A model generated the notes under the pieces. That model saw only the letters and a list, made by a program, of their open reading frames with translations, ran no database searches and was not told the origin of the DNA. A program made the position numbers and the translations under genes. From a virus: a stretch of 64,000 nt of DNA. This document shows positions 5,381-43,232 of this stretch, in pieces (position 1 is the stretch's first letter; every line of letters begins with the position of its first letter). The DNA is taken from IMG/VR virus record IMGVR_UViG_3300048903_000225, one strand, 5' to 3'.

Positions 5381-5580
5381 GCCAGTACGTCACCCTCATC
5401 GGCGTCGAGGACGTCAGCCGCGCCGGCCACAACATGCAGCACGCGGCGTCCGAGATGTCCTCCGCCGCGTCGTCGATCGCTCACACACTGGAAATGCACC
5501 AGCGCTTCATGGACGACTGGCTCGTCCGCTTCGAGGAGGTCATGAAGAATGGCAAAGATCTTCCTTCCGCCGCTGGATAG
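5377..5580 (+). CDS. Small helical hypothetical protein
   Basis: GTGA overlap; MSQYVTLIGVEDVSRAG... Confidence 0.65.
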   Translation: MSQYVTLIGVEDVSRAGHNMQHAASEMSSAASSIAHTLEMHQRFMDDWLVRFEEVMKNGKDLPSAAG

Positions 5581-9163: not shown

Positions 9164-9559
9164 ATGTCCAAGCTCTCGAACTTCAAGACCACCGTGCAGT
9201 CGGCCATCGCCGCGCTGCTCAAGCCCCTCGACGCGGACAGCGCCAAGGAGCAGGCCGTGCGCCGGCTCGGCGTCGCTTCCGAAATCGTCCGCCTCGGTGA
9301 GGCCGACAAGAAGAAGGCCAAGACCGAGCTGACCACGCTGGGGATCATCACCGGCGGCGAGCAGAACGGCGTCGTCTTCGACAGCGGCCGCTACGTGATG
9401 ACCGCGACGACCAAGGCCGCGTCCTCGCGCCTCGACGCCGCTGCGCTCGACACGGCGCTCGATGCCGAGAAGATCTCGGCCGCCGCCAAGCGCCGGATCA
9501 TCGCCGCCGCGACCGTCACCAGCAAGGCCGCGACCAGCTTCTCGGTCGAGACCAAGTAA
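9164..9559 (+). CDS. Hypothetical Ala/Lys-rich protein (frame is open back to 8984)
   Basis: AAGGA SD before ATG9164; high GC3 from this point. Confidence 0.7.
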   Translation: MSKLSNFKTTVQSAIAALLKPLDADSAKEQAVRRLGVASEIVRLGEADKKKAKTELTTLGIITGGEQNGVVFDSGRYVMTATTKAASSRLDAAALDTALDAEKISAAAKRRIIAAATVTSKAATSFSVETK

Positions 9560-13812: not shown

Positions 13813-14064
13813 ATGCCAACAGTTGATCTCTCGCGGCGCGATATTGGCCGCCTGCTTGTTGGCGTCCGCGAGCGTCTCAGGAAGCTCGATCGGGGTCTTA
13901 GCAAATTCGGCGACAACTTCGACCCGTCGCTCGGCGCCAACATGACGGAGGCCCGCGAGGCCTACAGTCGCATCGAAACGGTCCTCAAGGAGGCGATCCG
14001 TGAAGAAAACGATCATCCACGTCGCGCAGGACGCGATCCGGCGCAACGCCAAGCTCGGCACTGA
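13813..14064 (+). CDS. Hypothetical protein
   Basis: GGAGA SD before ATG13813. Confidence 0.6.
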   Translation: MPTVDLSRRDIGRLLVGVRERLRKLDRGLSKFGDNFDPSLGANMTEAREAYSRIETVLKEAIREENDHPRRAGRDPAQRQARH

Positions 14065-16466: not shown

Positions 16467-17603
16467 ATGGCGGAAATTCAATTTGAACTCGTCGGTGACG
16501 GCAGTCCTGCCGTCTACCACGGTCCCCTCCTTTACAAGCTGGACAGCCTCGGCAAGCTGCGGACGTGGCGTATGGAGCTGCTCGATGACGGGCGCTACGC
16601 CACCCTCGCCGGCCTGGCCGACGGCAAGCAGGCGCGCAGCGCCTACACCACGCCGGTGCCGGCCTCCAAGCCGACGCAGAAGGAGCAGGGCGAGTTCGAG
16701 GTGCGCAGCGCCTACAAGCACCAGCTCGATCGCGAGTATCACGACAGCCCCGACACCGTCGGCACGGCGAAGATGGTCGAGCCGATGCTCGCCAAGACCT
16801 ACGACAAGTGGCCGGGGATCGGTTACGCCCAGCCGAAGCTGGACGGCATCCGCTGCATCATGGACGCCAACGGCATGTGGACTCGCCAAGGTCAGCCGAT
16901 TACGGCTGTCCCGCATCTCCACGCCTATCTGGCGCCGCTGTTCGAGGCCGATCCCGACCTGATCCTCGACGGCGAGCTATACAACCACGATCTGCGCGAG
17001 GATTTCGGTGCGATTAGCTCGATCGTGCGGAAGAAGAACCCGACCGCAGATGATCTGGTTAAGGCCGAGGCCGTCATGCAGTACCATGTCTATGACATCG
17101 TCGATCCGGCGACGTCGTTCGTGGATCGCAACAAGCGCCTCAAGGATCTCCTGATCCCGCTGCAGGGCTGGGCAGTGATCGTTCCGACGCGGGTCTGCCT
17201 CACCGAGGCCGAAGCGGACGAGGCCTACGGCGAGTTCGTCTCGCTCGGCTACGAGGGCGGCATGTACCGGCTCGACAAGCCCTACGAGCTGGGCCGGCGC
17301 TCGAAGGCGCTGCTCAAGCGCAAGGACTTCATCACCGAGGAGTTCCCGGTGGTGCATATCGAGGAAGGCAACGGCAACTGGGCCGGCGCCGCCAAGCGCT
17401 TCACGCTGGAGCTTCCGGACGGCCGTCATTTCGGCGCCGGCGTGCGCGGCAGCTACGCTCAGATGGCAGAGCTGCTCAAGCGCTACGACCCAGCGGCCGT
17501 GCCGCAGCCGGTGGCGACGCTGCGCTATTTCATGCTGTCGCCGGACGGCGTACCCCGCTTTCCGGTCGTCATCGACTTCCATCCTTTTGGGCGTAAGGAC
17601 TAG
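16467..17603 (+). CDS. ATP-dependent DNA ligase
   Basis: QPKLDGIRC (motif I), LDGELY, YHVYDI, YEGGMYR, LLKRK, C-terminal OB fold RFPV. Confidence 0.95.
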   Translation: MAEIQFELVGDGSPAVYHGPLLYKLDSLGKLRTWRMELLDDGRYATLAGLADGKQARSAYTTPVPASKPTQKEQGEFEVRSAYKHQLDREYHDSPDTVGTAKMVEPMLAKTYDKWPGIGYAQPKLDGIRCIMDANGMWTRQGQPITAVPHLHAYLAPLFEADPDLILDGELYNHDLREDFGAISSIVRKKNPTADDLVKAEAVMQYHVYDIVDPATSFVDRNKRLKDLLIPLQGWAVIVPTRVCLTEAEADEAYGEFVSLGYEGGMYRLDKPYELGRRSKALLKRKDFITEEFPVVHIEEGNGNWAGAAKRFTLELPDGRHFGAGVRGSYAQMAELLKRYDPAAVPQPVATLRYFMLSPDGVPRFPVVIDFHPFGRKD

Positions 17604-18108: not shown

Positions 18109-18414
18109 ATGGCCGACGAACTTCTCTCCCCCGATGAGCACCCCGCGACCGGCGATCAGCCGGTGGCGCTTCCGTCGCCCGACGAGCCGCTTCCGGTTCA
18201 TGAAGGTGAGCCGAAGTTCGTCGACCATCAGCCCGAATACAAGGTCGCCGAAGTGCGTGACGGCCTTGTGATCGTGGAGATGGAGGACGGGCGCATGTTC
18301 CCGGTGCCGCTTCCCGACACCGATCTCAAGCTGCGGAAGGGCAGCAAGATCGAGCTGAGCCATGACGGCCTCGACAAGGAAGGCGTGCCGGCCAATCCGA
18401 CGATCACGTCGTGA
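18109..18414 (+). CDS. Acidic hypothetical protein
   Basis: AAGGAG SD; followed by terminator. Confidence 0.7.
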   Translation: MADELLSPDEHPATGDQPVALPSPDEPLPVHEGEPKFVDHQPEYKVAEVRDGLVIVEMEDGRMFPVPLPDTDLKLRKGSKIELSHDGLDKEGVPANPTITS

Positions 18415-18438
18415 TCCGGCTTCCCATCAAAGACGACT

Positions 18439-18464
18439 AGGGCGCCTTCGGGCGCCCTTTCTTT
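18439..18464 (+). terminator. Rho-independent terminator
   Basis: AGGGCGCC-TTCG-GGCGCCCT-TTCTTT. Confidence 0.8.
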
Positions 18465-18475
18465 GGAGAAAGATC

Positions 18476-19444
18476 ATGAGACCTGTGAAGCAGCTCGCGC
18501 GCGTGGCGCACGGCTCGCACCTGTACGGCACCTCCACGCCGATGTCCGACCACGACTTCAAGGGTGTCCACCTCCCGTCCGGGCGTGGCATCATCCTTGG
18601 CCGCGCCGAGGACCACATCAAGCGAGACTTCGTTTCGAAGATCGACGGCACGGACAAGAACGCCGCGGACGCGATCGACGAGGAGAGCTTCTCGCTCCAG
18701 AAATTCTTCGACATGCTGATGAAGGGGGACACGGTCGCCACCGAGATCCTCTTCGCGCCGACGCTGGAGCAGTCCGCGCTGTGGGGCGAGGTGCAGGCGA
18801 CCGGCAAGCTGCTGCTCAATCGCCAATGCAAGGGCTTCGTCGGCTACTGCGTGCGCCAGGCCGCCAAGTATGGCATCAAGGGATCGCGGATGCGAGCTGT
18901 CAAGGACGTTCTGGAGTTCCTCAAGCAGGAAGATCCGAACGCCAAGCTCTCGACGATCGAGGTCAAGCTGCATAACTGGTCGGCAGGTCGCGAGCACATC
19001 CTGTGGGAGAACATTCCCAGCCCGAACGGCACTGACCTGTGGCATCTCGACGTCTGCGATCGGAAGATGCCGATGACGACCACGATCGGCGCGGCGCGTG
19101 ACGTGTGGGCGAAGGTGTGGCAGAACTACGGCGAACGCGCCCGGCAGGCCGAGCAGAACGACGGCATCGACTGGAAGGCCATGAGCCACGCTGTCCGCGT
19201 CGCCGAGCAGGCGATCGAGCTGCTGACGACCGGCGAGATCACCTTCCCGCGCCCGCACGCCGGTCTCCTGCTGGAGATCAAGCTCGGCCGCCACGGCTAC
19301 GATCACATCAGCGCCCGGCTGGAGTGGCTTGTCGAGGAGGTGAAACGGGTGAGCGAGCATTCGATCCTGCCCGCCGAAAGCGATCGTTCGATCGCGGATC
19401 GGCTCGTCGAGCGGTTCTATCTCAATCAGGTCACGATGTCGTGA
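18476..19444 (+). CDS. Pol-beta superfamily nucleotidyltransferase (RlaP-like phage family)
   Basis: HGSHLYGTSTPMSDHDFKGV (GS...DxD); DWKAMSHAVR. Confidence 0.85.
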   Translation: MRPVKQLARVAHGSHLYGTSTPMSDHDFKGVHLPSGRGIILGRAEDHIKRDFVSKIDGTDKNAADAIDEESFSLQKFFDMLMKGDTVATEILFAPTLEQSALWGEVQATGKLLLNRQCKGFVGYCVRQAAKYGIKGSRMRAVKDVLEFLKQEDPNAKLSTIEVKLHNWSAGREHILWENIPSPNGTDLWHLDVCDRKMPMTTTIGAARDVWAKVWQNYGERARQAEQNDGIDWKAMSHAVRVAEQAIELLTTGEITFPRPHAGLLLEIKLGRHGYDHISARLEWLVEEVKRVSEHSILPAESDRSIADRLVERFYLNQVTMS

Positions 19445-24701: not shown

Positions 24702-25075
24702 TGACCCAGCTCTATATTCCTGCCCTCAAGGATCGCATCCGGCTGCTCGAACCCCTCTTCGTCGAGGTGACCGAGGACAGCGTGTGGGGTCTCCACAGCA
24801 CAGCGTGGGCAATCGAGCGGCCGGGCGAGCCGTGGAATTATCTCGCGAGCAAGACGCTGCCCGGCTTCACGCTGGAAGCGGGAACGGTGCTGGAGTTCAA
24901 GCGCTACTTCATCAGCACCCATGCGAAGGAAGATCGCGTGAAGGTGGTGATCTTCGCCAGCCCTCGCCGCGACCTGTTCCCGCGCTCCCGAGGCGGCACC
25001 GGCCAGACGATCGACATGGACCTCTCGGTCGCGGTCCTGAACCGGATCGAATACGAGAAGATGGAGGAAGTATGA
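24701..25075 (+). CDS. Hypothetical protein
   Basis: GGAGG SD; TGATG coupling. Confidence 0.7.
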   Translation: MTQLYIPALKDRIRLLEPLFVEVTEDSVWGLHSTAWAIERPGEPWNYLASKTLPGFTLEAGTVLEFKRYFISTHAKEDRVKVVIFASPRRDLFPRSRGGTGQTIDMDLSVAVLNRIEYEKMEEV

Positions 25076-25623
25076 CCATCTGGAAGCAGCTCGATAGCGC
25101 CATTGCGTTCGCCGCGACGGCGCATGCCGGGCAGGTGCGCAAATACAGCGCCCTGCCTTACATCGTTCACCCGATCGAGGTCATGGAGATCGTTCTGACG
25201 CGATCGGTCCTGCCGGTTACGGAGGACCAGCTGGTCGCCGCCGTGCTGCACGACGTCGTCGAAGACACGCCCGTCGGCTTGCGCGACATCACGCGGCGCT
25301 ACGGTCCCGAGGTGGCCCGTCTGGTCTACGAGCTGACGGATCAGTTCACCGATCCCAAGCTCGGCAACCGGGCGGCGCGCAAGGCGATGGAGCGCGAGCG
25401 GCTCGCCACGATCTCCGCGGAGGCGCAGACCATCAAGTACGCCGATTTCATCTCCAACACGAAATCGATCGTCGAACACGATCGCAATTTCGCTCGCGTC
25501 TACCTCGCCGAGAAGGAAGCGATCCTCAAGGTGATGCGCGAGGGAGACGAGGCGCTGCTGAGCGCCGCCGAGCTTTCCCTGCAATGGGGACAAACCCAAC
25601 TGGTACAGGAGGCATTGCGATGA
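25072..25623 (+). CDS. Mesh1/SpoT-type HD hydrolase (small alarmone hydrolase family)
   Basis: FAATAHAGQVRKYSALPYIVHPIEV, AAVLHDVVEDT, VYELTD, IKYADFISN. Confidence 0.88.
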   Translation: MTIWKQLDSAIAFAATAHAGQVRKYSALPYIVHPIEVMEIVLTRSVLPVTEDQLVAAVLHDVVEDTPVGLRDITRRYGPEVARLVYELTDQFTDPKLGNRAARKAMERERLATISAEAQTIKYADFISNTKSIVEHDRNFARVYLAEKEAILKVMREGDEALLSAAELSLQWGQTQLVQEALR

Positions 25624-26336
25624 CCTTTCGCTACTCGCTGGTCTCGGACCTGCATCTCGACTTCCCGCATCCGAAGACGCCTGCGATGGAGCAGTTCGTC
25701 ATCGTCGCGGGCGATTGCGCCAACGGCTTGCTAGGGTTGAAATACTTGAGCAAACTCAAGCGGAAAGGCCATACGGTCTTCGCGGTCGACGGCAACCACG
25801 AGCACTATGCGAACCGCGCGCAGGGCCGGACGATCGCCGATACAGAGAAGGCGTTCTACATCGGCCTGGATCAGGCGCTGTTTTATGATGTACCCGACGA
25901 ACCGCTCCGGATCATCGGCTGCAACGGCTGGTACAACGTCGAGGACGAGCGCCACTGGCTTGGCTACATGAACGACGGTCGGAACTGTGCGGCCGATGCT
26001 GTAATGGTCAACGAGAAGGCGCGCGAGCAGGCGCTGTGGATGGAAGCGCAGCTGGCGATGGTGCCGACCGGCGCTCGCGCGATCGTCGTGACGCACACGG
26101 CGCCGTGCGAGGAGTCGCTGGATCCCAAATACGTGGGATCATCCGGCAACGACTACTACGTCAACAAGCTGATGACGCCGCTGCTCGCCGGCTTCCGTGA
26201 GAAGATCGCGATCTGGCATCACGGCCACACCCATGCCGCCGTGGACGTCGTCAAGGACGGTGTCCGCATCGTCACCAACCCGCGTGGTTATCCGAGGGAG
26301 AATCCCGAATGGCAGCCCCTAACCGTGGAGGTCTGA
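25620..26336 (+). CDS. Calcineurin-like metallophosphoesterase
   Basis: SDLH, AGD, GNHEHY, THTAP, HGHTH, NPRGY. Confidence 0.9.
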   Translation: MTFRYSLVSDLHLDFPHPKTPAMEQFVIVAGDCANGLLGLKYLSKLKRKGHTVFAVDGNHEHYANRAQGRTIADTEKAFYIGLDQALFYDVPDEPLRIIGCNGWYNVEDERHWLGYMNDGRNCAADAVMVNEKAREQALWMEAQLAMVPTGARAIVVTHTAPCEESLDPKYVGSSGNDYYVNKLMTPLLAGFREKIAIWHHGHTHAAVDVVKDGVRIVTNPRGYPRENPEWQPLTVEV

Positions 26337-27274
26337 ACGACCTCGAAGACATCCCGAAGCCGTGGCGTCATGCGCTCGCCGCGGTGCAGGTCTGCTGCCC
26401 CGACTCGATGATCGCCGGTGGTTGCCTGCGCGACCGCGATCACGGCGTGAAGGTCAAGGACATCGACATCTTCGTGTCCTCTCGATCGAACGAGAGCTAC
26501 CATCAGGTCGAGAACGTGCTCAAGGATCTGCGGCGCGGCGGCTGGAAGGATGCTCAGGTCGACGACGAGAAGACCTACACCAGCACCGACCGCTATATCT
26601 CTGGCCTGATCAACGCGCGCTTTCCCGGTGCGCCGCCGATCCAGATCATCGTCGGCACCTTCGACATCGGCAAGGTGCTGGACGAGATCGACTTCGGCAT
26701 CTGCCAGATCGGCTATGACGGGCGCCGCATCATGCGGACCCGCTGGTACAATGACGGAGCATCGGCTCACGAATTTCGCCTGATCCCGAAGGTGAACGAC
26801 GAGGGCTTCATCCGCTCGATCAACCGGTGGGCGCGCCTCAAGGAGAAGTATCCGGAATGGAAGCTGCACCTCGGAAGTCGAGCCGAGCAGGCGTCGGGCG
26901 GTTGGGTGGACGTTTCCAGCCGTCCGGACATAGTGAACGTCCAAGGCGTGGTCAGTCAGAAGGCCGCAAGGCTGCTCAGCAAGCAGGTCATGTTGCAGGC
27001 GCTCGGAAACCGCGAGTTCGTGGTGCCGAAGGCTGCAGCGGAACGGCTTGCGCGGGAGCTGCGGAGCGGCGTGATCCTGCATCAGCACGTTCAGCATCCG
27101 GACAAGTTCGCGATCGAGGTTCGCGATCCGAACGACCGGCCGAAGGCGTTGTCGCTCCTGAACGAGATCGTCAAGGAGCGGGAGGTCATGATGGACGCCG
27201 TCCGTCGCCGAGCGCTCTCAAGTCCGGCCGGCTCGACTGGCATCTTGAGCAAGAGTACGACCGTGCCCATCTAA
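26309..27274 (+). CDS. Class II nucleotidyltransferase (CCA-adding / poly(A) polymerase head domain) with C-terminal extension
   Basis: IAGGCLRD...KDIDIF; IDFGICQIGYDG; 3' end possibly frameshifted. Confidence 0.75.
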   Translation: MAAPNRGGLNDLEDIPKPWRHALAAVQVCCPDSMIAGGCLRDRDHGVKVKDIDIFVSSRSNESYHQVENVLKDLRRGGWKDAQVDDEKTYTSTDRYISGLINARFPGAPPIQIIVGTFDIGKVLDEIDFGICQIGYDGRRIMRTRWYNDGASAHEFRLIPKVNDEGFIRSINRWARLKEKYPEWKLHLGSRAEQASGGWVDVSSRPDIVNVQGVVSQKAARLLSKQVMLQALGNREFVVPKAAAERLARELRSGVILHQHVQHPDKFAIEVRDPNDRPKALSLLNEIVKEREVMMDAVRRRALSSPAGSTGILSKSTTVPI

Positions 27275-27344
27275 GGGAAATCCTGCGCACCGCCAAGGCG
27301 CCCGCGCTGCGGCGGCGCGTAGGACTCCTGCTGGAGAACATGAA

Positions 27345-27626
27345 ATGATCACCGACTGGTCAGACATAGAGGCTCGCGTAGCCAGTTTCTTCGCGCCGAA
27401 CGGCGGCGTCAGGATCAGCGCCGCGAAGCGTGCAATGTTCATGCGAATGTACGGCGGACGGGCGACCGGGCCGCTGACGCCAGAGGAGGCCTATGATGGG
27501 CGAGTACGCGGACATGGAGATCGATCGGTGGATCGGGGACTGCAATTGGGGCAGTCGCCGACGGGTCGCCTCCGCTCCTCGGATCCCGAAATGCAAGTGC
27601 TGCGGCCACCCCGGCGCGGGCTATAA
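27345..27626 (+). CDS. Mini-protein carrying PolA-like motif A and motif B sequences
   Basis: DWSDIEARV and AKRAMFMRMYGG in first 40 aa; ATGA coupling; 3' half overlaps next gene. Confidence 0.5.
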   Translation: MITDWSDIEARVASFFAPNGGVRISAAKRAMFMRMYGGRATGPLTPEEAYDGRVRGHGDRSVDRGLQLGQSPTGRLRSSDPEMQVLRPPRRGL

Positions 27627-27711
27627 CCTGCGCGGCCAGCTGATGGAGGCCAACAACACCATCCATCGCTGTCCGATGCCTGCTGGACCACCAAGATTGG
27701 ATTGCAAATGA
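27493..27711 (+). CDS. Small Zn-binding hypothetical protein
   Basis: GAGGAGG SD; MGEYADM start; CKCC...HRC. Confidence 0.6.
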   Translation: MMGEYADMEIDRWIGDCNWGSRRRVASAPRIPKCKCCGHPGAGYNLRGQLMEANNTIHRCPMPAGPPRLDCK

Positions 27712-29336
27712 CCCAGCCGTTGATGCTGCGCGATAAGCAGATCGAGCAGCTCGCCTTCTACATCGCCCACCCGAAGTGCCTGGATCTGTCCGATCCGGGC
27801 ACCGGGAAGACGCCGCCCTGCTGCCTCTATGCCTACTATATGTGGGATCGCGGGCAGCGGCGCACGCTCTGGTCGATGCCCAAGTCCTTGCTCAAGAAGA
27901 ACAAGAAGGAGCTTCACCGCTTCACGGAGTTCAAGGACGAGGACGTCGTGATCATGCGGACCGATCGCGCGAACCTGACCAAGAACTGGACGGGCGCCAC
28001 GATCGATGCCACGCGCCGGGTGGCGACGTGGCGGCTCAAGGACGGGCGCCAGACGCACGAGATTGATGCCGGCGGCCGGAAGCTCTACTATTTTGATGCC
28101 AGCAACACCGCTATCGTGCTGCGCACTGGCAAGGCTGTGCCGATGCCGGCGTCGAAGGACGATTGGTATCCGGTGGACCCCCTATTCGGCCCGGACGGTA
28201 AGACGCCCGTGAAGGAGTGGGTCGACGTCCCCGAGACGTTCAAGGATCTGATCGTCGAGGAGGCGAAGAAGGCGAAGGTCTTCATCTGCACCTTCGCGTT
28301 CATGAGTGCTCACTGGAAACGCCTGCTCCAGGCAGCACCCGACATTGATCTGCTCCTCGTCGACGAGCTGCACATGGGCTATGGCGGCCCCGAGTCGGCT
28401 CAGACGAAGTCGTTCTATTGGGTCAATCGCCATGTGTCTCGTTTCGTCGGGATGACCGGCACACTGATCAACGGACGGCTGGACAGCGCCTACCCCGCGA
28501 TCAGTGTAATAGAACCGCGCTATTATGGTTCCCTGCAGGGCTTCATGTATGAGCACGCCGCCGTCGTGGACGACTACGGCCGCGTGGTCGTGTGGAAGAA
28601 CGAGTCCAAGCTCAAACAAATCATCGAGAAGCACTCTATCCGGCGGACCTTCGAGGAGGTCTACGGCAAGGAGGACGTGGTGTTCTTCACCGAGACGGTG
28701 GAGATGGAAGACAAGGTTCAGGAGCAGTACGACCAGTTCGTGCAGCAGGCGCTGCTGGAGCTGGAGGACGGCCGTGTCCTCGACGGTTCGATGCCGGGCG
28801 TCAACGCGATCCGCTGCCGCCAGCTCATGAGCCACCCGGAGACCATGCTGACCGGCATCGGCAACTGGACGCCCAAGGACGAGCGGTTGCAGGTCCACTT
28901 GTCCAATGGCAAGAAGGCCCTGCTGTTCGCCTCGCTCAAGCCTGAGCAGGAGCGTCTCCTGCGCCTGGCGCAGGACATGGGGCTGCGCGCCGCGCTGATC
29001 AACAGCGACGTCAGCGGGCCTGCGCGGGCACGCATCGACGAGATGGCGCAGGCCGGCGAGCTGGACGTGATCGTGGCGTCGGGACCGACCGTCGCCGTCG
29101 GGTTCAACTGGGAGATGTTCGATCTCGTCGCCTTCGTGTCGATCGATTATCAGGACGTCAACATCCTGCAGGCCTACCGGCGCGCCTCGCGCGGCACCCG
29201 CACTCGAACCCTCTACGTCCTGTTCCTGCGCTACGAGAGCCGGGTGGAGGATCGGATGTACGACATCGTGAAGGCGAAGAGCCAGCTGGCCAATCGGGTT
29301 GATCCGACGCGGCCGGTCCTCGACTTTTCTTCCTAA
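27708..29336 (+). CDS. Superfamily 2 (SNF2-like) helicase
   Basis: DPGTGKT (Walker A), VDELH (Walker B), MTGT, GFNW, QAYRRASR. Confidence 0.9.
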   Translation: MTQPLMLRDKQIEQLAFYIAHPKCLDLSDPGTGKTPPCCLYAYYMWDRGQRRTLWSMPKSLLKKNKKELHRFTEFKDEDVVIMRTDRANLTKNWTGATIDATRRVATWRLKDGRQTHEIDAGGRKLYYFDASNTAIVLRTGKAVPMPASKDDWYPVDPLFGPDGKTPVKEWVDVPETFKDLIVEEAKKAKVFICTFAFMSAHWKRLLQAAPDIDLLLVDELHMGYGGPESAQTKSFYWVNRHVSRFVGMTGTLINGRLDSAYPAISVIEPRYYGSLQGFMYEHAAVVDDYGRVVVWKNESKLKQIIEKHSIRRTFEEVYGKEDVVFFTETVEMEDKVQEQYDQFVQQALLELEDGRVLDGSMPGVNAIRCRQLMSHPETMLTGIGNWTPKDERLQVHLSNGKKALLFASLKPEQERLLRLAQDMGLRAALINSDVSGPARARIDEMAQAGELDVIVASGPTVAVGFNWEMFDLVAFVSIDYQDVNILQAYRRASRGTRTRTLYVLFLRYESRVEDRMYDIVKAKSQLANRVDPTRPVLDFSS

Positions 29337-29345
29337 GAGAAATTT

Positions 29346-29373
29346 TGGAAACTACCCGGTACTTACCATAAAA
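29346..29373 (+). repeat. 28-bp regulatory repeat, copy 1 (candidate phage promoter/operator)
   Basis: TGGAAACTACCCGGTACTTACCATAAAA, identical at 41298-41325; AT-rich intergenic context. Confidence 0.85.
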
Positions 29374-29406
29374 TCACATTCATGAATTTATATATAGGAG
29401 ACTCCC

Positions 29407-29697
29407 ATGGGACAGAATGAAACCTGGAATGCCTCGCCGAGCGCGAGCCTGCGCACTGAGGCCCTGAACCGCAAGCTTGCCGAGGCTGGCGGCATCACGA
29501 TCGGCAGCGGCTGGCTGCACAAGAAGGGTGGCCGCTACATCGTCACCGGCAAGGCGATCGACACGGACACCGGCGACGTCCGCATCCAGTACAAGCGGTT
29601 CGGCGGCCCCGGCTACGATCCGATCGCGGAGCGCGACATCACTTTTTCTCGTCCGCTGTCTGAATGGACGGTTGACCGCTTCATCGAGCTTCGCTAG
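29407..29697 (+). CDS. Small SH3-like hypothetical protein (DUF1653-like)
   Basis: AGGAG SD; WLHKKGGRYIVTGKA...IQYK...FSRPLSEW. Confidence 0.7.
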   Translation: MGQNETWNASPSASLRTEALNRKLAEAGGITIGSGWLHKKGGRYIVTGKAIDTDTGDVRIQYKRFGGPGYDPIAERDITFSRPLSEWTVDRFIELR

Positions 29698-29918
29698 GCG
29701 AGTTCTTCCAGCTTCGGCTGGGCGGTGCGTTCGGACCCGGCTTCGATGCCGGCGCCTCCACCATTGCTGGTGCCCAACACCGGCATTGACGGGGGCGACA
29801 GGGATTCGACGGGCGCTCTGTAGACTGAAACGCGAATGACAACGACGAGGGCTTCGCCCTCCGCCTGGCGGCGTAAATGCACAGGGGTCTGGCCCACCTA
29901 GCAACAGAACGGGCCACG
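29698..29918 (+). ncRNA. ssrA: Circularly permuted two-piece tmRNA
   Basis: T-arm CCGGC-TTCGAT-GCCGG + CGCCTCC-A-CCA (ends 29763) lies upstream of GGGGGCG...GGATTCGAC (starts 29791); 7-bp acceptor stem with G3.U70; tag frame 29832-29876 ANDNDEGFALRLAA*; outer ends approximate. Confidence 0.92.
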
Positions 29919-29929
29919 AGTTTTACAGT

Positions 29930-30066
29930 CAGGCGGGTTCGATTCCCGCTCGCTGGCCGAGATTTGGTGAAGGAGCGCGGGTTCGACTCCCGACAGAGGG
30001 CGAAAGCCTTCATGCCAGTGCTTCCGGCGGTAGGAAGCGGCCCGACTGACCGCCGTAAGCGGTCAC
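29930..30066 (+). ncRNA. Unassigned structured RNA with two T-loop hairpins
   Basis: GCGGG-TTCGATT-CCCGC (29933-29949), CGGG-TTCGACT-CCCG (29978-29992), GNRA hairpin, closing stem CGCTGGC/GCCAGTG, two further hairpins. Confidence 0.5.
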
Positions 30067-30071
30067 CTTGG

Positions 30072-30148
30072 TGCGGGGTAGAGCAGCCCGGTAGCTCGTC
30101 TGCCTCATAAGCAGAAGGTCACCAGTTCAAAACTGGTCCCCGCAACCA
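30072..30148 (+). tRNA. tRNA-Met (CAT) on an fMet-like scaffold, CCA encoded
   Basis: Acceptor TGCGGGG/CCCCGCA, D stem GAGC/GCTC, anticodon stem TCTGC/GCAGA with loop CTCATAA, T-arm ACCAG-TTCAAAA-CTGGT; 77 nt. Confidence 0.95.
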
Positions 30149-30252
30149 AGATACCCGGTAACTTCTAAAAGGAGCTTTGCATGGCGCGAACATGAGCCTA
30201 TGACGGCTCCGTGCTTCGGCACGAACGACCTCGAACTTGGAAAGACATCCTT

Positions 30253-30906
30253 ATGACCCAGTCCTCTGCTCTCGCTTCCGTGATGGATCAGGCCGCCGCT
30301 GCTTCGGCCGCCTTCGAGCCGGGCACCGCCCTTGCTCCTGCCGGTGGCACGGCCGTTGCCCCCGCGGCGGAGTCGACCCGTCCCTCGCTCGACGACATGG
30401 CCGACAACGCCGGCATCCAGGTCGATGCCTATCTGTCCGTGAAGGAGGCTGGCCTCCGCATCGACAAGGCCGACTACTTCAAGGAAGCCAAGGTCACCAT
30501 CGACCTCACCGAATGCACCCCGATCTTCTCGGTGCGCGCCAACCGCGGCGGCCAGACGACCTTCATCAAGTCGTATGACGGCCGCATGACCTCGCAGGGT
30601 CAGAACTTCCAGCAGGCGACCGCCCAGCTGGCGGCGACCCACGACAAGGTCGACGGCCCCTACCAGACCGTCGAAGTGCCCGTCACGCTCCTGCAGGATG
30701 TGCCCGGCGCCAAGAAGGGCCAGCGTCTCGGCATCACCCCGGCGATCACCGGCGTGAAGTTCTGGACGAAGTTCTACAACGAGCTGCGCGCCGCCAACCT
30801 GCAGCGCTCCAAGGTCGAGGCCAAGATCGTCTGCGTCCCGCAGACGAACAAGAACGGCAACGAGTGGGGCGTCGTCGGCTTCGAGCTGATCGGCGAGGCG
30901 AAGTAA
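30253..30906 (+). CDS. Replication-module protein, possibly ssDNA-binding
   Basis: Strong codon bias, own terminator, position before flap exonuclease and polymerase; function inferred from context only. Confidence 0.6.
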   Translation: MTQSSALASVMDQAAAASAAFEPGTALAPAGGTAVAPAAESTRPSLDDMADNAGIQVDAYLSVKEAGLRIDKADYFKEAKVTIDLTECTPIFSVRANRGGQTTFIKSYDGRMTSQGQNFQQATAQLAATHDKVDGPYQTVEVPVTLLQDVPGAKKGQRLGITPAITGVKFWTKFYNELRAANLQRSKVEAKIVCVPQTNKNGNEWGVVGFELIGEAK

Positions 30907-40653: not shown

Positions 40654-41273
40654 GCGGACGCCTTCCACCACTTGGTGCCGGGCAGGAAATCCTGCGAGCG
40701 GTTGTTCCAGCCGTTGAGGAAGATGCGATCGTGGTCATTCGGCCCCTGATCGGTGGCGAGGCCGGTGTCGAACTTGATCCGGGCCTGGCAGTAGGAGCGC
40801 GCGCACGCTTCCTCGCCGAATTTGGCAATCCACGCGGCGTATTTCTGGACAGTCTCACCGCCCTTGCCGATCTTGCCATCGTCATTCGCACCGATCAGCC
40901 GCTGCAGCAGCTTAATCGCCTGGCCGGGGCCAGAGATGTAGCCCTTGTCGATCACCGACAGCGTGACGCGGTTCTGCGCGAGGAAGCCGAGGCCGGGGCG
41001 ATCGACATACTGGTCGACCGCAATGTCCACGGCTTCGTCGAAGGCGATGCTGGCGATGTCAGCAGCGGTGACGTTGGCCAGCTTGCGATGCTGCGCCAGC
41101 GCGTAGGCCGTGACGCCGAACTTCGAGCCGACGAGCTTGCCCATGTTCCGCTTCTGCGGAAGGCCCTGCTTGTACCGGGTAGGGTCGAACCAGTTGCCGT
41201 TGTCGCTGGCGTTCAGGGAGAGGCCACCTTCGTGGGCCTTGAGCGAGGCAGCGAGGAAATCACGAGGCGTCAT
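40650..41273 (-). CDS. Endolysin, glycoside hydrolase family 108 with PG-binding domain
   Basis: AHEGG...DNG, SKFGVT, AIKLLQRLIGANDDGKIG, FLNGWNNR. Confidence 0.88.
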   Translation of the reverse strand: MTPRDFLAASLKAHEGGLSLNASDNGNWFDPTRYKQGLPQKRNMGKLVGSKFGVTAYALAQHRKLANVTAADIASIAFDEAVDIAVDQYVDRPGLGFLAQNRVTLSVIDKGYISGPGQAIKLLQRLIGANDDGKIGKGGETVQKYAAWIAKFGEEACARSYCQARIKFDTGLATDQGPNDHDRIFLNGWNNRSQDFLPGTKWWKASA

Positions 41274-41297
41274 GGCTTTGCCCTATAGCAGAAAATA

Positions 41298-41325
41298 TGG
41301 AAACTACCCGGTACTTACCATAAAA
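41298..41325 (+). repeat. 28-bp regulatory repeat, copy 2
   Basis: Identical to 29346-29373; lies in divergent endolysin/sbcC gap. Confidence 0.85.
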
Positions 41326-41363: not shown

Positions 41364-43232
41364 ATGATCGAACGCCTCACATGCTCCGCCCATTTCCCGA
41401 TCAGCCGTGCGACGGTAATCGGAGATTTTCAACCCAGAACCGGCATCACCGCCGTGGTTGGGAAGAATGGAGCTGGCAAGACGTTCAGCACGATCGAGAC
41501 AGCACGTTGGCTGCTCTATGGAAAGCCAGCCCTGCGCGGCGCGGCGCCCGACTACAAGACGGCTGAGGCCAGCGGTGTGTTCGTCATCCGCGGCGCGCGC
41601 TACGAGATCAGCCGGGGCAAGCACGAGTGGGTCAAGGACAGCACCGGCAAGACCGTGGCTGTCGGCGCCGAGAAGGTCACCGAGTATCTGACGCAGGCGA
41701 TGGGCTACGGCCTCGACGTCTTCGATCTCTGCAACGCGGCGACGCAGGGCAACGTACAGAAGCTGGGCGAGATGCGGCCGGCCGAGCGCAAGGCGATGAT
41801 CGATAAGGTGCTGCGCCTGACCGACGCCGAGCGCGCCGAGAAGGACTGCCGCGAGGAGGCGAAGGGTCACCGCCGAGAGGCAGAGACCCTGACCAAGACG
41901 CTCATCGCGCCGGGCGATGCGCCGCAGCCGCCGGCCGGCTACATCTCCTCGACCAGCCTCCGCGGCGCCTTGATGGCAATGCGCAAGATCCGTGACGAGC
42001 ATGAGGCGCTTGTCGCGCGCCGTGTCAATCTGCAGGAGCCGACACCGCCGGCCACGGATATGCCTGCCAGCGTCGACGTGGCGGCTCTGGAGCAGCACGA
42101 GCGCGATCGGGTGGCACTGGACGCCCGGCACGCCCTCGTGCGTCCCTGCGAGGCCTACACGGGCGAGGAGCTTGATGCCGCCCAGCTCCGACTGGAACAC
42201 GCGACCGAGACGCGCCGTCGCGGTCCGAAGCCGACCATGCCGATCGGTGACGTGCTGGCACAGAAGGATATCTGGGACGAGATCGCCTTCACCTCGAAGA
42301 TCAATCGTGAGCAGGTGACCTGTCCGAAATGTGCCCACGAATTTCTGACAGGCCGGCCGGTGCCGCCGACGCCTGTTACCAGTCTCGCGGAACTGGGCAG
42401 ACAGGAGAATGAGCATCGCGCTTGGGCAACCCCGTTGGCCGATCCTCCGGCCGGTCCTGACCTGACCGCCGAGCAGATCACGCTGGCGCGGGAAGCCCTG
42501 TTGGCGCCGCCTCTGCCGCCTCGTCTGGCCGATCGCAGCGAGGAGCTGGCCGTCGCGCGCCGGGCGCAGGCAGCATGGCAGGTCTATGTCGAGGCCAAGG
42601 CGTCCTACGACAAGCAGGTCGAGATCAACGCGGAGATCGATCGCGAGATCGAGGCGCTCGGCCCGGTCTCACCGCCGTCGGTCCTCGACTCACAGGCCGA
42701 TGCGCTGAACCAGGCGGTCGCCTATGAGCACGCCGTACAGACACATGACGCGGCTACGTCTGTATGGAAGGAGACGAGCGCCAAGATCGCCGAGGCCTTG
42801 CGGCTGGCCGAGGAATATACGCTCGGCGCCAAGGGCATCGCCGACGCGCGCGCCGTGATCAAGGCGCTGATCGCGCCGCGCATCAGCCGCATCGCTTCCG
42901 CCCTGCTCGCCGACATGACGATGGGAGAGCTGCGCGACGTCGTCGTGGACGAGGACATGGACATCACGATCGGCGGCCAGCGGATCGAGACCCTGTCCGG
43001 CGCCGGGAAGACCGTCGCCAATCTTGCCCTGCGTGTGGCAATGGGCCAAGCGCTGGTGGCTCACACCTTCCCAGTCTTCCTCGCAGACGAGATCGATGGT
43101 GATCTCGATGCCGAGCGCCGCGAAGCGACCCTCATGGCGATTGCCTCTCTCAAGAAGCACCTCAAGCAGATCATCCTGATCACGCACCGCGGCGCTGACA
43201 TCGCCGATCAAGTTCATGATGTTACCCGGTAG
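41364..43232 (+). CDS. sbcC: SbcC/Rad50-like ABC ATPase
   Basis: GKNGAGKT, zinc hook CPKC, LSGAGK signature, FLADEIDGDLD, LITH. Confidence 0.92.
   Translation: MIERLTCSAHFPISRATVIGDFQPRTGITAVVGKNGAGKTFSTIETARWLLYGKPALRGAAPDYKTAEASGVFVIRGARYEISRGKHEWVKDSTGKTVAVGAEKVTEYLTQAMGYGLDVFDLCNAATQGNVQKLGEMRPAERKAMIDKVLRLTDAERAEKDCREEAKGHRREAETLTKTLIAPGDAPQPPAGYISSTSLRGALMAMRKIRDEHEALVARRVNLQEPTPPATDMPASVDVAALEQHERDRVALDARHALVRPCEAYTGEELDAAQLRLEHATETRRRGPKPTMPIGDVLAQKDIWDEIAFTSKINREQVTCPKCAHEFLTGRPVPPTPVTSLAELGRQENEHRAWATPLADPPAGPDLTAEQITLAREALLAPPLPPRLADRSEELAVARRAQAAWQVYVEAKASYDKQVEINAEIDREIEALGPVSPPSVLDSQADALNQAVAYEHAVQTHDAATSVWKETSAKIAEALRLAEEYTLGAKGIADARAVIKALIAPRISRIASALLADMTMGELRDVVVDEDMDITIGGQRIETLSGAGKTVANLALRVAMGQALVAHTFPVFLADEIDGDLDAERREATLMAIASLKKHLKQIILITHRGADIADQVHDVTR

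Follow-up and report, generated by a model that had tools for sequence, protein, structure and literature searches.

Neighbouring accessory genes and small RNAs in an uncultured Seuss-like phage probably form two separable sets with a translation-support and counter-defence theme

Introduction

Phage tRNAs, RlaP, CCA-adding enzymes, HD alarmone phosphodiesterases and phosphoesterases have been catalogued as counter-measures by Iyer et al. 2021 (Viruses 13:63, PMC7824862), and tmRNA genes are reported from 402 of 18,146 phage genomes, with 133 unique structures of which 53 are two-piece (Buchholz et al. 2022, PMC9004378). Two further phage proteins are relevant here: PaSpo, which is reported to neutralise the toxSAS toxins CapRel and FaRel2 and to remove the 3' pyrophosphate from tRNA (PMC9712102; 10.1101/2024.07.05.602228), and Gabija anti-defence protein 2 (Gad2), for which inhibition is established only for the protein of Bacillus phage SPbetaL7 and a Brevibacillus homologue (10.1101/2023.05.01.538930). 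The present study deals with a region of a 64,000-nucleotide viral DNA stretch (IMG/VR record IMGVR_UViG_3300048903_000225; the whole stretch is referred to as the window) in which counterparts of several of these elements lie close together, namely genes for a small alarmone hydrolase (SAH), a metallophosphoesterase (MPE) and a nucleotidyltransferase (NTase), a two-piece tmRNA, a structured RNA with two T-loops and a tRNA-Met.

The window resembles the catalogue of Iyer et al. (PMC7824862) in its tRNA, its Pol-beta-type NTases (RlaP and the CCA-like one), its HD alarmone phosphodiesterase and its phosphoesterase. That catalogue, however, is drawn from jumbo phages and does not discuss tmRNA, whereas the window belongs to a mid-sized lineage (relatives of ~83 kb), and it carries one tRNA only, lacks an RNA ligase and has a two-piece tmRNA as well as an additional, putatively tRNA-mimicking RNA. 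Toolkits of this kind (PMC7824862) and phage two-piece tmRNAs (PMC9004378) are already described, and the most interesting component is the two-T-loop RNA, a covarying phage family without an Rfam match.

The original prediction for this locus, made from the sequence alone, had proposed that all six parts constitute one integrated counter-defence module. The interpretation favoured here, to which we assign a probability of roughly 0.68, is that they fall into two neighbouring but separable accessory sets within the early/replication operon, amounting to a loose translation-support/counter-defence toolkit and not to a co-inherited or mechanistically coupled module.

Distribution of the accessory parts

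It can be seen from Table 1 that every part anticipated by the original prediction is present within ~5 kb where it had been placed, two labels and one detail requiring correction, and that a helicase gene indeed lies between the two halves. Eight metagenomic relatives, traced through NTase homologues, are syntenic with the window. Their shared order runs ligase, RlaP, class II ribonucleotide reductase (RNR), deoxynucleoside monophosphate phosphatase (dNMPase), two small genes, SAH, MPE, NTase, small open reading frame (ORF), helicase, a 125-aa gene, DUF1653, tmRNA, tRNA, gp071-like gene, exonuclease and the family A polymerase PolA, with SAH, MPE, the 125-aa gene, DUF1653, tmRNA and tRNA being the variably present members.

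Presence and absence of the parts in these eight relatives were called from tblastn, Rfam, ARAGORN and the covariance model R1 of the two-T-loop RNA. The SAH gene is missing in L011 only, the MPE gene in L004, L006, L020 and L021, and the tmRNA in L011 and L021; a tRNA was detected in just the window (Met) and L002 (Leu-CAA), and the two-T-loop RNA, within the clade, in the window alone, model R1 giving no match in the relatives. Outside the clade the parts are likewise met separately. In other phages, MPE homologues of 53-62% identity have unrelated genes for neighbours. SAH homologues were retrieved from 240 phage records, and beside those of SSU5 (PaSpo) and OLIVR5 no NTase, MPE or tmRNA is annotated; tblastn found neither SAH nor MPE near the distant NTase homologues L012-L014. 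The SAH-NTase neighbourhood, within one syntenic lineage, is the only persistent link among the parts.

Because the parts vary separately inside the clade and travel separately outside it, the pattern across phages, as judged from sequence comparison, is largely one of independent distribution, which is part of the outcome that the original prediction itself had named as contrary to an integrated module. Each part appears to be a phage auxiliary function gained and lost on its own.

Table 1 Coordinates of the accessory parts and their neighbours in the window (SAH, small alarmone hydrolase; MPE, metallophosphoesterase; NTase, nucleotidyltransferase; ORF, open reading frame)
Feature	Position	Strand	Remarks
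ATP-dependent DNA ligase	16467-17603		near RlaP
RlaP NTase (RNA-repair Pol-beta)	18362-19444		kept in most relatives
SAH, single HD_4 domain, 183 aa, Mesh1/PaSpo type	25072-25623	+	start overlaps stop of upstream gene
Calcineurin-like MPE, 238 aa	25620-26336	+	ATGA overlap with SAH gene
Gad2 / small phage PolyA_pol-head family NTase, 321 aa	26309-27274	+	precomputed Pfam PF26128
Small ORF, 71 aa	27496-27711	+	gene call on L022/L023
SNF2-type helicase	27708-29336	+	core replication gene; splits the two accessory sets
Sigma-70-like promoter TTGGAA-18-TAAAAT	29345-29374	+	TACCCGGTA box at 29353-29361 in spacer
DUF1653-like ORF, 96 aa	29407-29697	+	first gene of small-RNA transcription unit
Alpha-type circularly permuted tmRNA gene	29698-29920	+	Rfam RF04321, 51.4 bits vs gathering score 47
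Two-T-loop structured RNA	29925-30068	+	covariance model R1, 134 bits
tRNA-Met (CAU)	30072-30148	+	ARAGORN; Rfam tRNA, 63.5 bits
Second TACCCGGTA box, A/T-rich stretch, GGAG, 4-codon mini-ORF (30181-30195)	30152-30195	+	before gp071-like gene (30211-30906)

Enzymes of the first set

The first set (25072-27274) comprises three overlapping, presumably early auxiliary enzyme genes. Identification of the SAH, as originally predicted, is firm: Pfam HD_4 was matched at 2.2e-14 (53.9 bits against a cut-off of 27.2) with no synthetase domain, and phrog_990 at 5e-37. The best solved relatives are Drosophila and human Mesh1 (PDB 3nqw, E 4.8e-15), and the catalytic HD...ED motif, LHDVVEDT, aligns with that of Drosophila Mesh1 in 3nqw. 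In comparison with PaSpo of Salmonella phage SSU5, both proteins consist of a single HD_4 domain, with 41% identity over 84% of the query (E 2e-22), and the difference lies in the surroundings of the two genes described above. By homology, the substrates of the enzyme would be (p)ppGpp/(p)ppApp, from which it would remove the 3' pyrophosphate, and perhaps also toxSAS-modified tRNA ends.

For the MPE, Pfam matches were obtained with Metallophos_2 (28.5 bits) and Metallophos (25.5 bits), together with phrog_1649 at 3.5e-32, and the family is large (>421 homologues). A sequence search of PDB was uninformative. With an AlphaFold2 model of pLDDT 93.8, the top Foldseek match was the Mycobacterium tuberculosis phosphopantetheinyl hydrolase PptH (6unc, E 7e-10, TM 0.68-0.70), followed by the cyclic-nucleotide phosphodiesterase Rv0805, GpdQ and purple acid phosphatases; Pnkp and lambda-phosphatase, representing the RNA 3'-end healing type, were absent from the top 50 structural matches. 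A phosphoesterase is therefore present as anticipated, and its suggested link to RNA-end healing found no support, the modelled fold being most similar to PptH/Rv0805 phosphodiesterases and carrying no specific tie to such healing. The set 1 MPE would in this light be a PptH/Rv0805-like phosphodiesterase.

The NTase had been labelled CCA-like, and this holds for its catalytic head only. Its N-terminal ~190 residues are conserved, with GGxLRD...DIDIF (the class II signature) and DFGICQ, and its C-terminal 100 residues are variable and unrelated. The PolyA_pol head scored 16.7 bits, below the 23-bit cut-off, with motif A present, and a profile search of PDB was uninformative (E 0.55). The top PDB structures in Foldseek were class II CCA-adding enzymes (E 1.6e-3 over ~190 columns, head and neck); in BFVD they were small head-only phage NTases (E 4e-7) from Caulobacter phages Cd1 and Lullwater and Pseudomonas phage LKD16. 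The class II CCA-adding enzymes (PDB 3h3a, 5hc9, 4x4w) share the GGxLRD...DxD signature and a DF(T/G)I(N/C)-like second motif and give the best folds, but only ~190 residues align, at TM 0.29-0.36 and E ~1e-3. Identity as a full class II CCA-adding enzyme was accordingly rejected, the protein having 321 aa against about 370-450 aa and being without body and tail.

In the precomputed Pfam table of the collection the window NTase is filed under PF26128 Gad2 (E<=1e-5), as are its homologues P0018 and P0026, the match being weak or faint in other homologues. It resembles Gad2 of SPbetaL7 (10.1101/2023.05.01.538930) insofar as both are predicted NTases encoded by phages, whereas the latter is a 400-aa protein of a Firmicute phage and the window protein has 321 aa with an unrelated, variable C-terminus. 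On sequence grounds it is best placed in the Gad2 family, with a CCA-enzyme-like catalytic head and without the body and tail through which CCA-adding enzymes hold tRNA, and it would transfer a nucleotide to an acceptor. A single-protein search of IMG/VR with the NTase returned no relatives; an alignment-based query returned 7 loci, to which a metagenome scan added little.

Promoter-like boxes and a proposed small-RNA transcription unit

The second set (29345-30160) would be one transcription unit, running from box to box and holding the DUF1653-like protein, the tmRNA, the two-T-loop RNA and the tRNA-Met, most likely as one precursor from the promoter at 29345, which is the only promoter-like site within 27200-30400. 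The original prediction had seen the RNA block as flanked by boxes; the TACCCGGTA boxes at 29353 and 30152 are there, and they are not peculiar to the block. In the window TACCCGGTA has 6 exact copies, and allowing up to one mismatch raises the number of sites to 15, where 3.2 would be expected. Around two of them, at 29353 and 41305, a promoter-like stretch of ~45 nt recurs, the copy at 41282-41325 being ~91% identical over 44 nt to the element at 29345-29385. This copy sits upstream of an SMC-like gene at 41364; an inverted box was also observed at 41173, inside a divergent gene. An equivalent box follows the helicase in L006, L009, L011, L020 and L021. Since the box before the gp071-like gene is kept even in the tmRNA-less L011 and L021, the boxes appear to be promoter-associated, marking transcription-unit boundaries and not cassette edges. 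The RNAs occupy the 3' end of the DUF1653 unit, and there is no repeat-delimited cassette. A possible reading of TACCCGGTA as a GajA target motif was dropped, as the box misfits the TNNNCGGGNNA pattern.

The second box also belongs to a conserved leader ahead of the gp071-like gene. A box, TTYTAnAA, GGAGnTTTGCATG and an ORF of 2-6 codons precede this gene in L002, L004, L006, L009 and L020. The leader is made up of the TTACCCGGTAAC box, TTYTAnAA, GGAGnTTTGCATG, the mini-ORF and then a hairpin (L002 14363-14400; L004 ~13905-13945; L006 ~9180-9225; L009 ~5465-5520; L020 ~13995-14035), and it may encode a regulatory leader peptide.

Between the boxes lies a protein gene not listed in the original prediction. 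The DUF1653-like ORF has a G+C content at third codon positions of 0.82, a GGAG ribosome-binding site and a Pfam DUF1653 match of E 0.018, and its counterparts at this position in L004, L006, L009, L011 and L021 are DUF1653 genes with 44-54% identity to it.

The two-piece tmRNA that had been predicted was borne out by Rfam (Table 1), the older RF01849 model giving 36.4 bits, under its gathering score of 50; Rfam models match only the tRNA-like domain of this RNA, and ARAGORN does not call it. The acceptor piece ends in CGCCUCC-A-CCA at 29763, with discriminator A and an encoded CCA, and an intervening segment of 27 nt (29764-29790) separates it from the coding piece, whose G1 lies at 29791 and whose 5' GGGGGCG gives the G3.U70 pair. 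The tag ORF (29832-29876) begins with the resume codon GCG at 29832, specifies the peptide ANDNDEGFALRLAA and ends with TAA (29874-29876), and the 3' hairpin bears the alpha-type CAACAGAA motif, with an end near 29920. At the same locus, L002, L004, L006, L009 and L020 have tmRNAs at or above the gathering score (RF01849 50-69 bits there), and their tag peptides are conserved at the protein level as ANDN...(L/I)AA. Some phage permuted tmRNAs were seen to hold a canonical T-arm hairpin within the removed intervening segment (L004 13708-13722, L029, L052).

The window tmRNA is like that of the OM43 phage Melnitz (PMC9004378) and the two-piece tmRNAs of Caulobacter (Keiler, Shapiro & Williams 2000) in placing the acceptor piece first, in its encoded CCA and excised segment and in its ANDN...AA alpha-type tag; it differs in belonging to a soil/freshwater-type, high-GC siphophage lineage and in being without a riboswitch. 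Judged from its sequence, it lacks none of the features expected of a functional rescue RNA. Host RNase P and 3' tRNA-processing enzymes would excise the RNAs of this set from the precursor, after which the tmRNA would be charged by host alanyl-tRNA synthetase through G3.U70 and, with host SmpB and EF-Tu, would free stalled ribosomes and tag peptides with ANDNDEGFALRLAA.

The tRNA-Met has an initiator-like body with a U1-A72 pair, A11-U24 and an encoded CCA, and its anticodon stem reads UCUGC/GCAGA, without three consecutive G-C pairs. Bacterial initiator tRNA-fMet is marked by an unpaired 1-72 position, three consecutive G-C pairs in the anticodon stem and A11-U24. The gene is thus not a canonical bacterial initiator, being initiator-like only in A11-U24 and overall sequence. 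It is 87.8% identical to the tRNA-Met of Sinorhizobium phage phiM12, and in a comparison with five other phage tRNA-Met genes the TG start was found in 4/5 and the GCA(A/T)CCA end in 5/5. The U1-A72 initiator-like form occurs in phiM12, CcrColossus and other phage contigs, and therefore the tRNA, correctly predicted as such, is a recurrent phage tRNA and no oddity, contrary to its description as atypical. Further instances among alphaproteobacterial phages were noted at L170 1504-1580, L171 305-381, L154 3456-3531 and L166 3446-3521, and in L154 and L164 the tRNA-Met directly adjoins the two-T-loop RNA, as in the window. The window tRNA-Met would supplement the host pool.

The two-T-loop RNA

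The double-T-loop RNA of the original prediction was confirmed, with two GGTTCGAnTCC T-loops at 29933-29950 and 29967-29985. No matching Rfam family was found. Its first part consists of a T-arm, the invariant CTCGYTGGCCGAG and GGUGAAGG, a T-like hairpin, a GNRA/UUCG hairpin and a conserved AGU, and its second part of a D-arm-like hairpin with GG(G)UA in the loop, GGCCCGA and a terminal hairpin, present in some members only, whose loop is CGUAA. The covariance model R1 recovers 23 loci in all, the window at 134 bits and 22 others at 33-151 bits (window 29918-30074; L065, L066, L080, L090, L125, L144-L166). In an alignment that was fitted to model R1, which favours the structure, 96% of cells are paired against 39-57% with slid partners, with 64 double-sided changes against at most 15 in slid controls. 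Three hairpins outside T-arm 1 covary strongly across the 23 loci. The contigs L022 and L023 are near-identical to the window and offered no variation for this analysis.

Several structural candidates were set aside. The minimum-free-energy fold of the RNA block was not used, for its z of -2.4 came with T-arms that were not kept, and a long-range CGYTGGC/GCNAGUG helix found only partial support in a by-eye alignment check; RNAalifold favours an invariant GGCC/GGCC pairing, which cannot covary. The ARAGORN calls 'tRNA-Ser(cga)', 'tRNA-Tyr' and 'tRNA-???' over family members were judged artefacts in which a T-loop is taken for an anticodon loop.

The closest described RNAs are the YrlA Y RNAs (PMC4201824; 10.1101/312249), with which the two-T-loop RNA shares the order of T-arm, closed acceptor-like region and D-arm, a GG in the D-arm-like loop and the lack of a free CCA; it differs in that its acceptor-like region carries two extra hairpins. 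None of four phage records carrying the RNA has a Ro60/TROVE gene (controls matched), and the Ro-binding motif GNCGAA could not be made out in the alignments. The RNA is YrlA-like in architecture and is not classed as a YrlA member.

Its 26-nt motif GGTTCGANTCCCGCTCGNTGGCCGAG occurs exactly in 22 IMG/VR contigs and in 6 of 185,579 species genomes (Caenibius, Phenylobacterium, Silanimonas, Variovorax, a Rhodobacteraceae metagenome-assembled genome and a Rhodospirillaceae metagenome-assembled genome). The neighbours of the RNA vary, being methylase/ParB or UDG-PolA in some contigs and HNH with terminase in another, its linkage to an integrase is inconsistent across genomes, and in three complete genomes with the RNA, HD_4, a permuted tmRNA and an A1-type NTase are all absent.

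A scan for closely spaced T-loop pairs returned at least 119 viral contigs, a few of them closely window-like; in these IMG/VR contigs (L025-L143) two GGTTCGANTCCC T-loops stand 20-45 nt apart. Many of the pairs resemble a tRNA with an incomplete T-arm/acceptor/CCA copy behind it, and these could be attachment-site duplicates or minihelix RNAs. In L158, a 6-kb contig, the T-loop RNA is joined upstream, at T-arm 1, to a tRNA-Glu-like 5' part (compare L145/L148), a joint that stems either from prophage integration or from chimeric assembly.

The phage lineage and neighbouring genes

The G+C content is 61-66% across most of the window, and the + strand holds nearly all genes up to ~38 kb. Besides the ligase, RlaP, class II RNR and dNMP phosphatase, the window encodes an rIIA-like protein, a 5'-3' exonuclease, the family A polymerase and an SMC-like protein. 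Its PolA shares 42% identity with the polymerase of Caulobacter phage Seuss (85 kb), weaker matches being Xylophilus phage Lumi and Achromobacter phage JWF, and a DNA-level search of phage records revealed no close relative of the window, the tRNA being the sole match. The window is read, from its gene content, as an uncultured, virulent (lytic), Seuss-like siphophage of an alphaproteobacterium. Among possible hosts the Sphingomonadales are tentatively favoured, as a Caenibius metagenome-assembled genome carries the T-loop RNA nearest to that of the window and close homologues of the MPE are found in Sphingopyxis and Sphingomonas.

The helicase is 35% identical to Seuss gp072 and 60-65% identical to its counterparts in all relatives, with phrog_62 matched at 7e-56 and both Pfam Helicase_C and SNF2-rel_dom slightly under their cut-offs. 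In Seuss the helicase gene leads directly to the gp071 gene, the RNA block being absent at that position, and the equivalent region carries a MazG-like pyrophosphatase. For the small ORF before the helicase, L022 and L023 are 100% identical to the window around 27496-27711, and an overlapping 93-aa frame there has no family match in Pfam or PHROG. In two relatives an RNA_ligase (PF09414) gene was observed between RNR and dNMP phosphatase (L004 7480-8106).

Discussion

The translation-support/counter-defence theme of the parts seems reasonable from their sequence assignments. Phage-encoded tRNAs are known to counter defences that cleave tRNA. The point at issue is whether six such parts act as one unit. 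Where phage genes are densely packed and co-directional, the clustering of parts with a common theme argues only weakly for a module, and the comparative test mostly contradicts integration. A single co-selected module would have the MPE and NTase mending tRNA 3' ends, the SAH clearing alarmones and tRNA pyrophosphate, the tRNA-Met substituting for a targeted tRNA and the tmRNA releasing stalled ribosomes, and it can draw on the placement of all parts on one strand within 5 kb, on the retention of the SAH-NTase neighbourhood and the tmRNA locus in most relatives, on the homology of the SAH with PaSpo, reported to reverse toxSAS tRNA modification (10.1101/2024.07.05.602228), and on the resemblance of the NTase head to CCA-adding enzymes. 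Against this stand the independent losses in the clade and the parts found alone elsewhere, a Gad2-filed NTase without tRNA-binding body or tail, an MPE of the PptH/Rv0805 kind with no RNA-healing enzyme among its best structural matches, a core helicase between the halves and boxes that are general promoter motifs, so that we regard the integrated module as improbable. Only a little less doubtful is the proposal that the first set serves host take-over and nucleotide metabolism instead of counter-defence, with the SAH keeping (p)ppGpp low and thereby sustaining host transcription and translation, the MPE and NTase acting on nucleotides or small molecules, and the tmRNA mainly recycling ribosomes and amino acids during host mRNA decay. 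The position of the set directly downstream of the class II RNR and dNMP phosphatase, the MazG-like enzyme of Seuss, the small-molecule and cyclic-nucleotide phosphodiesterases that best match the MPE, and the destruction of alarmones by phages, which blunts the stringent response (review, PMC13728456), would all suit such a role. The NTase family, however, is defined by an anti-Gabija protein (10.1101/2023.05.01.538930) and for a phage SAH homologous to that of the window, neutralisation of a defence toxin has been reported (PMC9712102); host take-over and counter-defence are moreover compatible, neither excluding the other.

The preferred interpretation, two separable accessory sets, has evidence to answer as well. 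In 7/8 relatives SAH and NTase lie side by side or almost so, and the SAH, MPE and NTase genes overlap; some functional coupling within the first set is therefore possible. The clade is syntenic throughout, with the result that both the kept adjacency and the independent losses rest on few related genomes. Moreover, RlaP, along with an RNA ligase in some relatives, lies 6-8 kb upstream, and thus the RNA-repair theme spans the region more than chance might suggest.

The two-T-loop RNA may be a tRNA mimic. Tentatively, and with a likelihood that we place well below even, it is the first-seen tmRNA/tRNA-operon member of an undescribed phage tRNA-mimic family of YrlA-like topology without a Ro60 link, possibly serving as a decoy or sponge for tRNA-directed defences or tRNA-processing enzymes and forming, with the tmRNA and the U1-A72 tRNA-Met, a small-RNA counter-defence operon. 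That the stretch should be nothing but decayed tRNA genes or a tRNA-derived attachment site devoid of function is very hard to credit: the many contigs in which a tRNA precedes a partial T-arm/acceptor copy, the tRNA-Glu-like joint of L158 and one provirus with the element 1.4 kb from one end and an integrase at the other speak for it, but three hairpins beyond T-arm 1 covary strongly over 23 loci, phages without an integrase have the element too, among them the present lytic phage and one bearing terminal repeats, and another complete genome has it 27 kb from the integrase.

Overall, the locus offers testable candidates in its PaSpo-like SAH, to be set against toxSAS/CapRel, in a Gad2-family NTase from an alphaproteobacterial phage and in a two-piece tmRNA found at one locus through the whole phage lineage. 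If it is a true tRNA mimic, the two-T-loop RNA would add a new RNA player to the phage-bacteria contest over tRNA.

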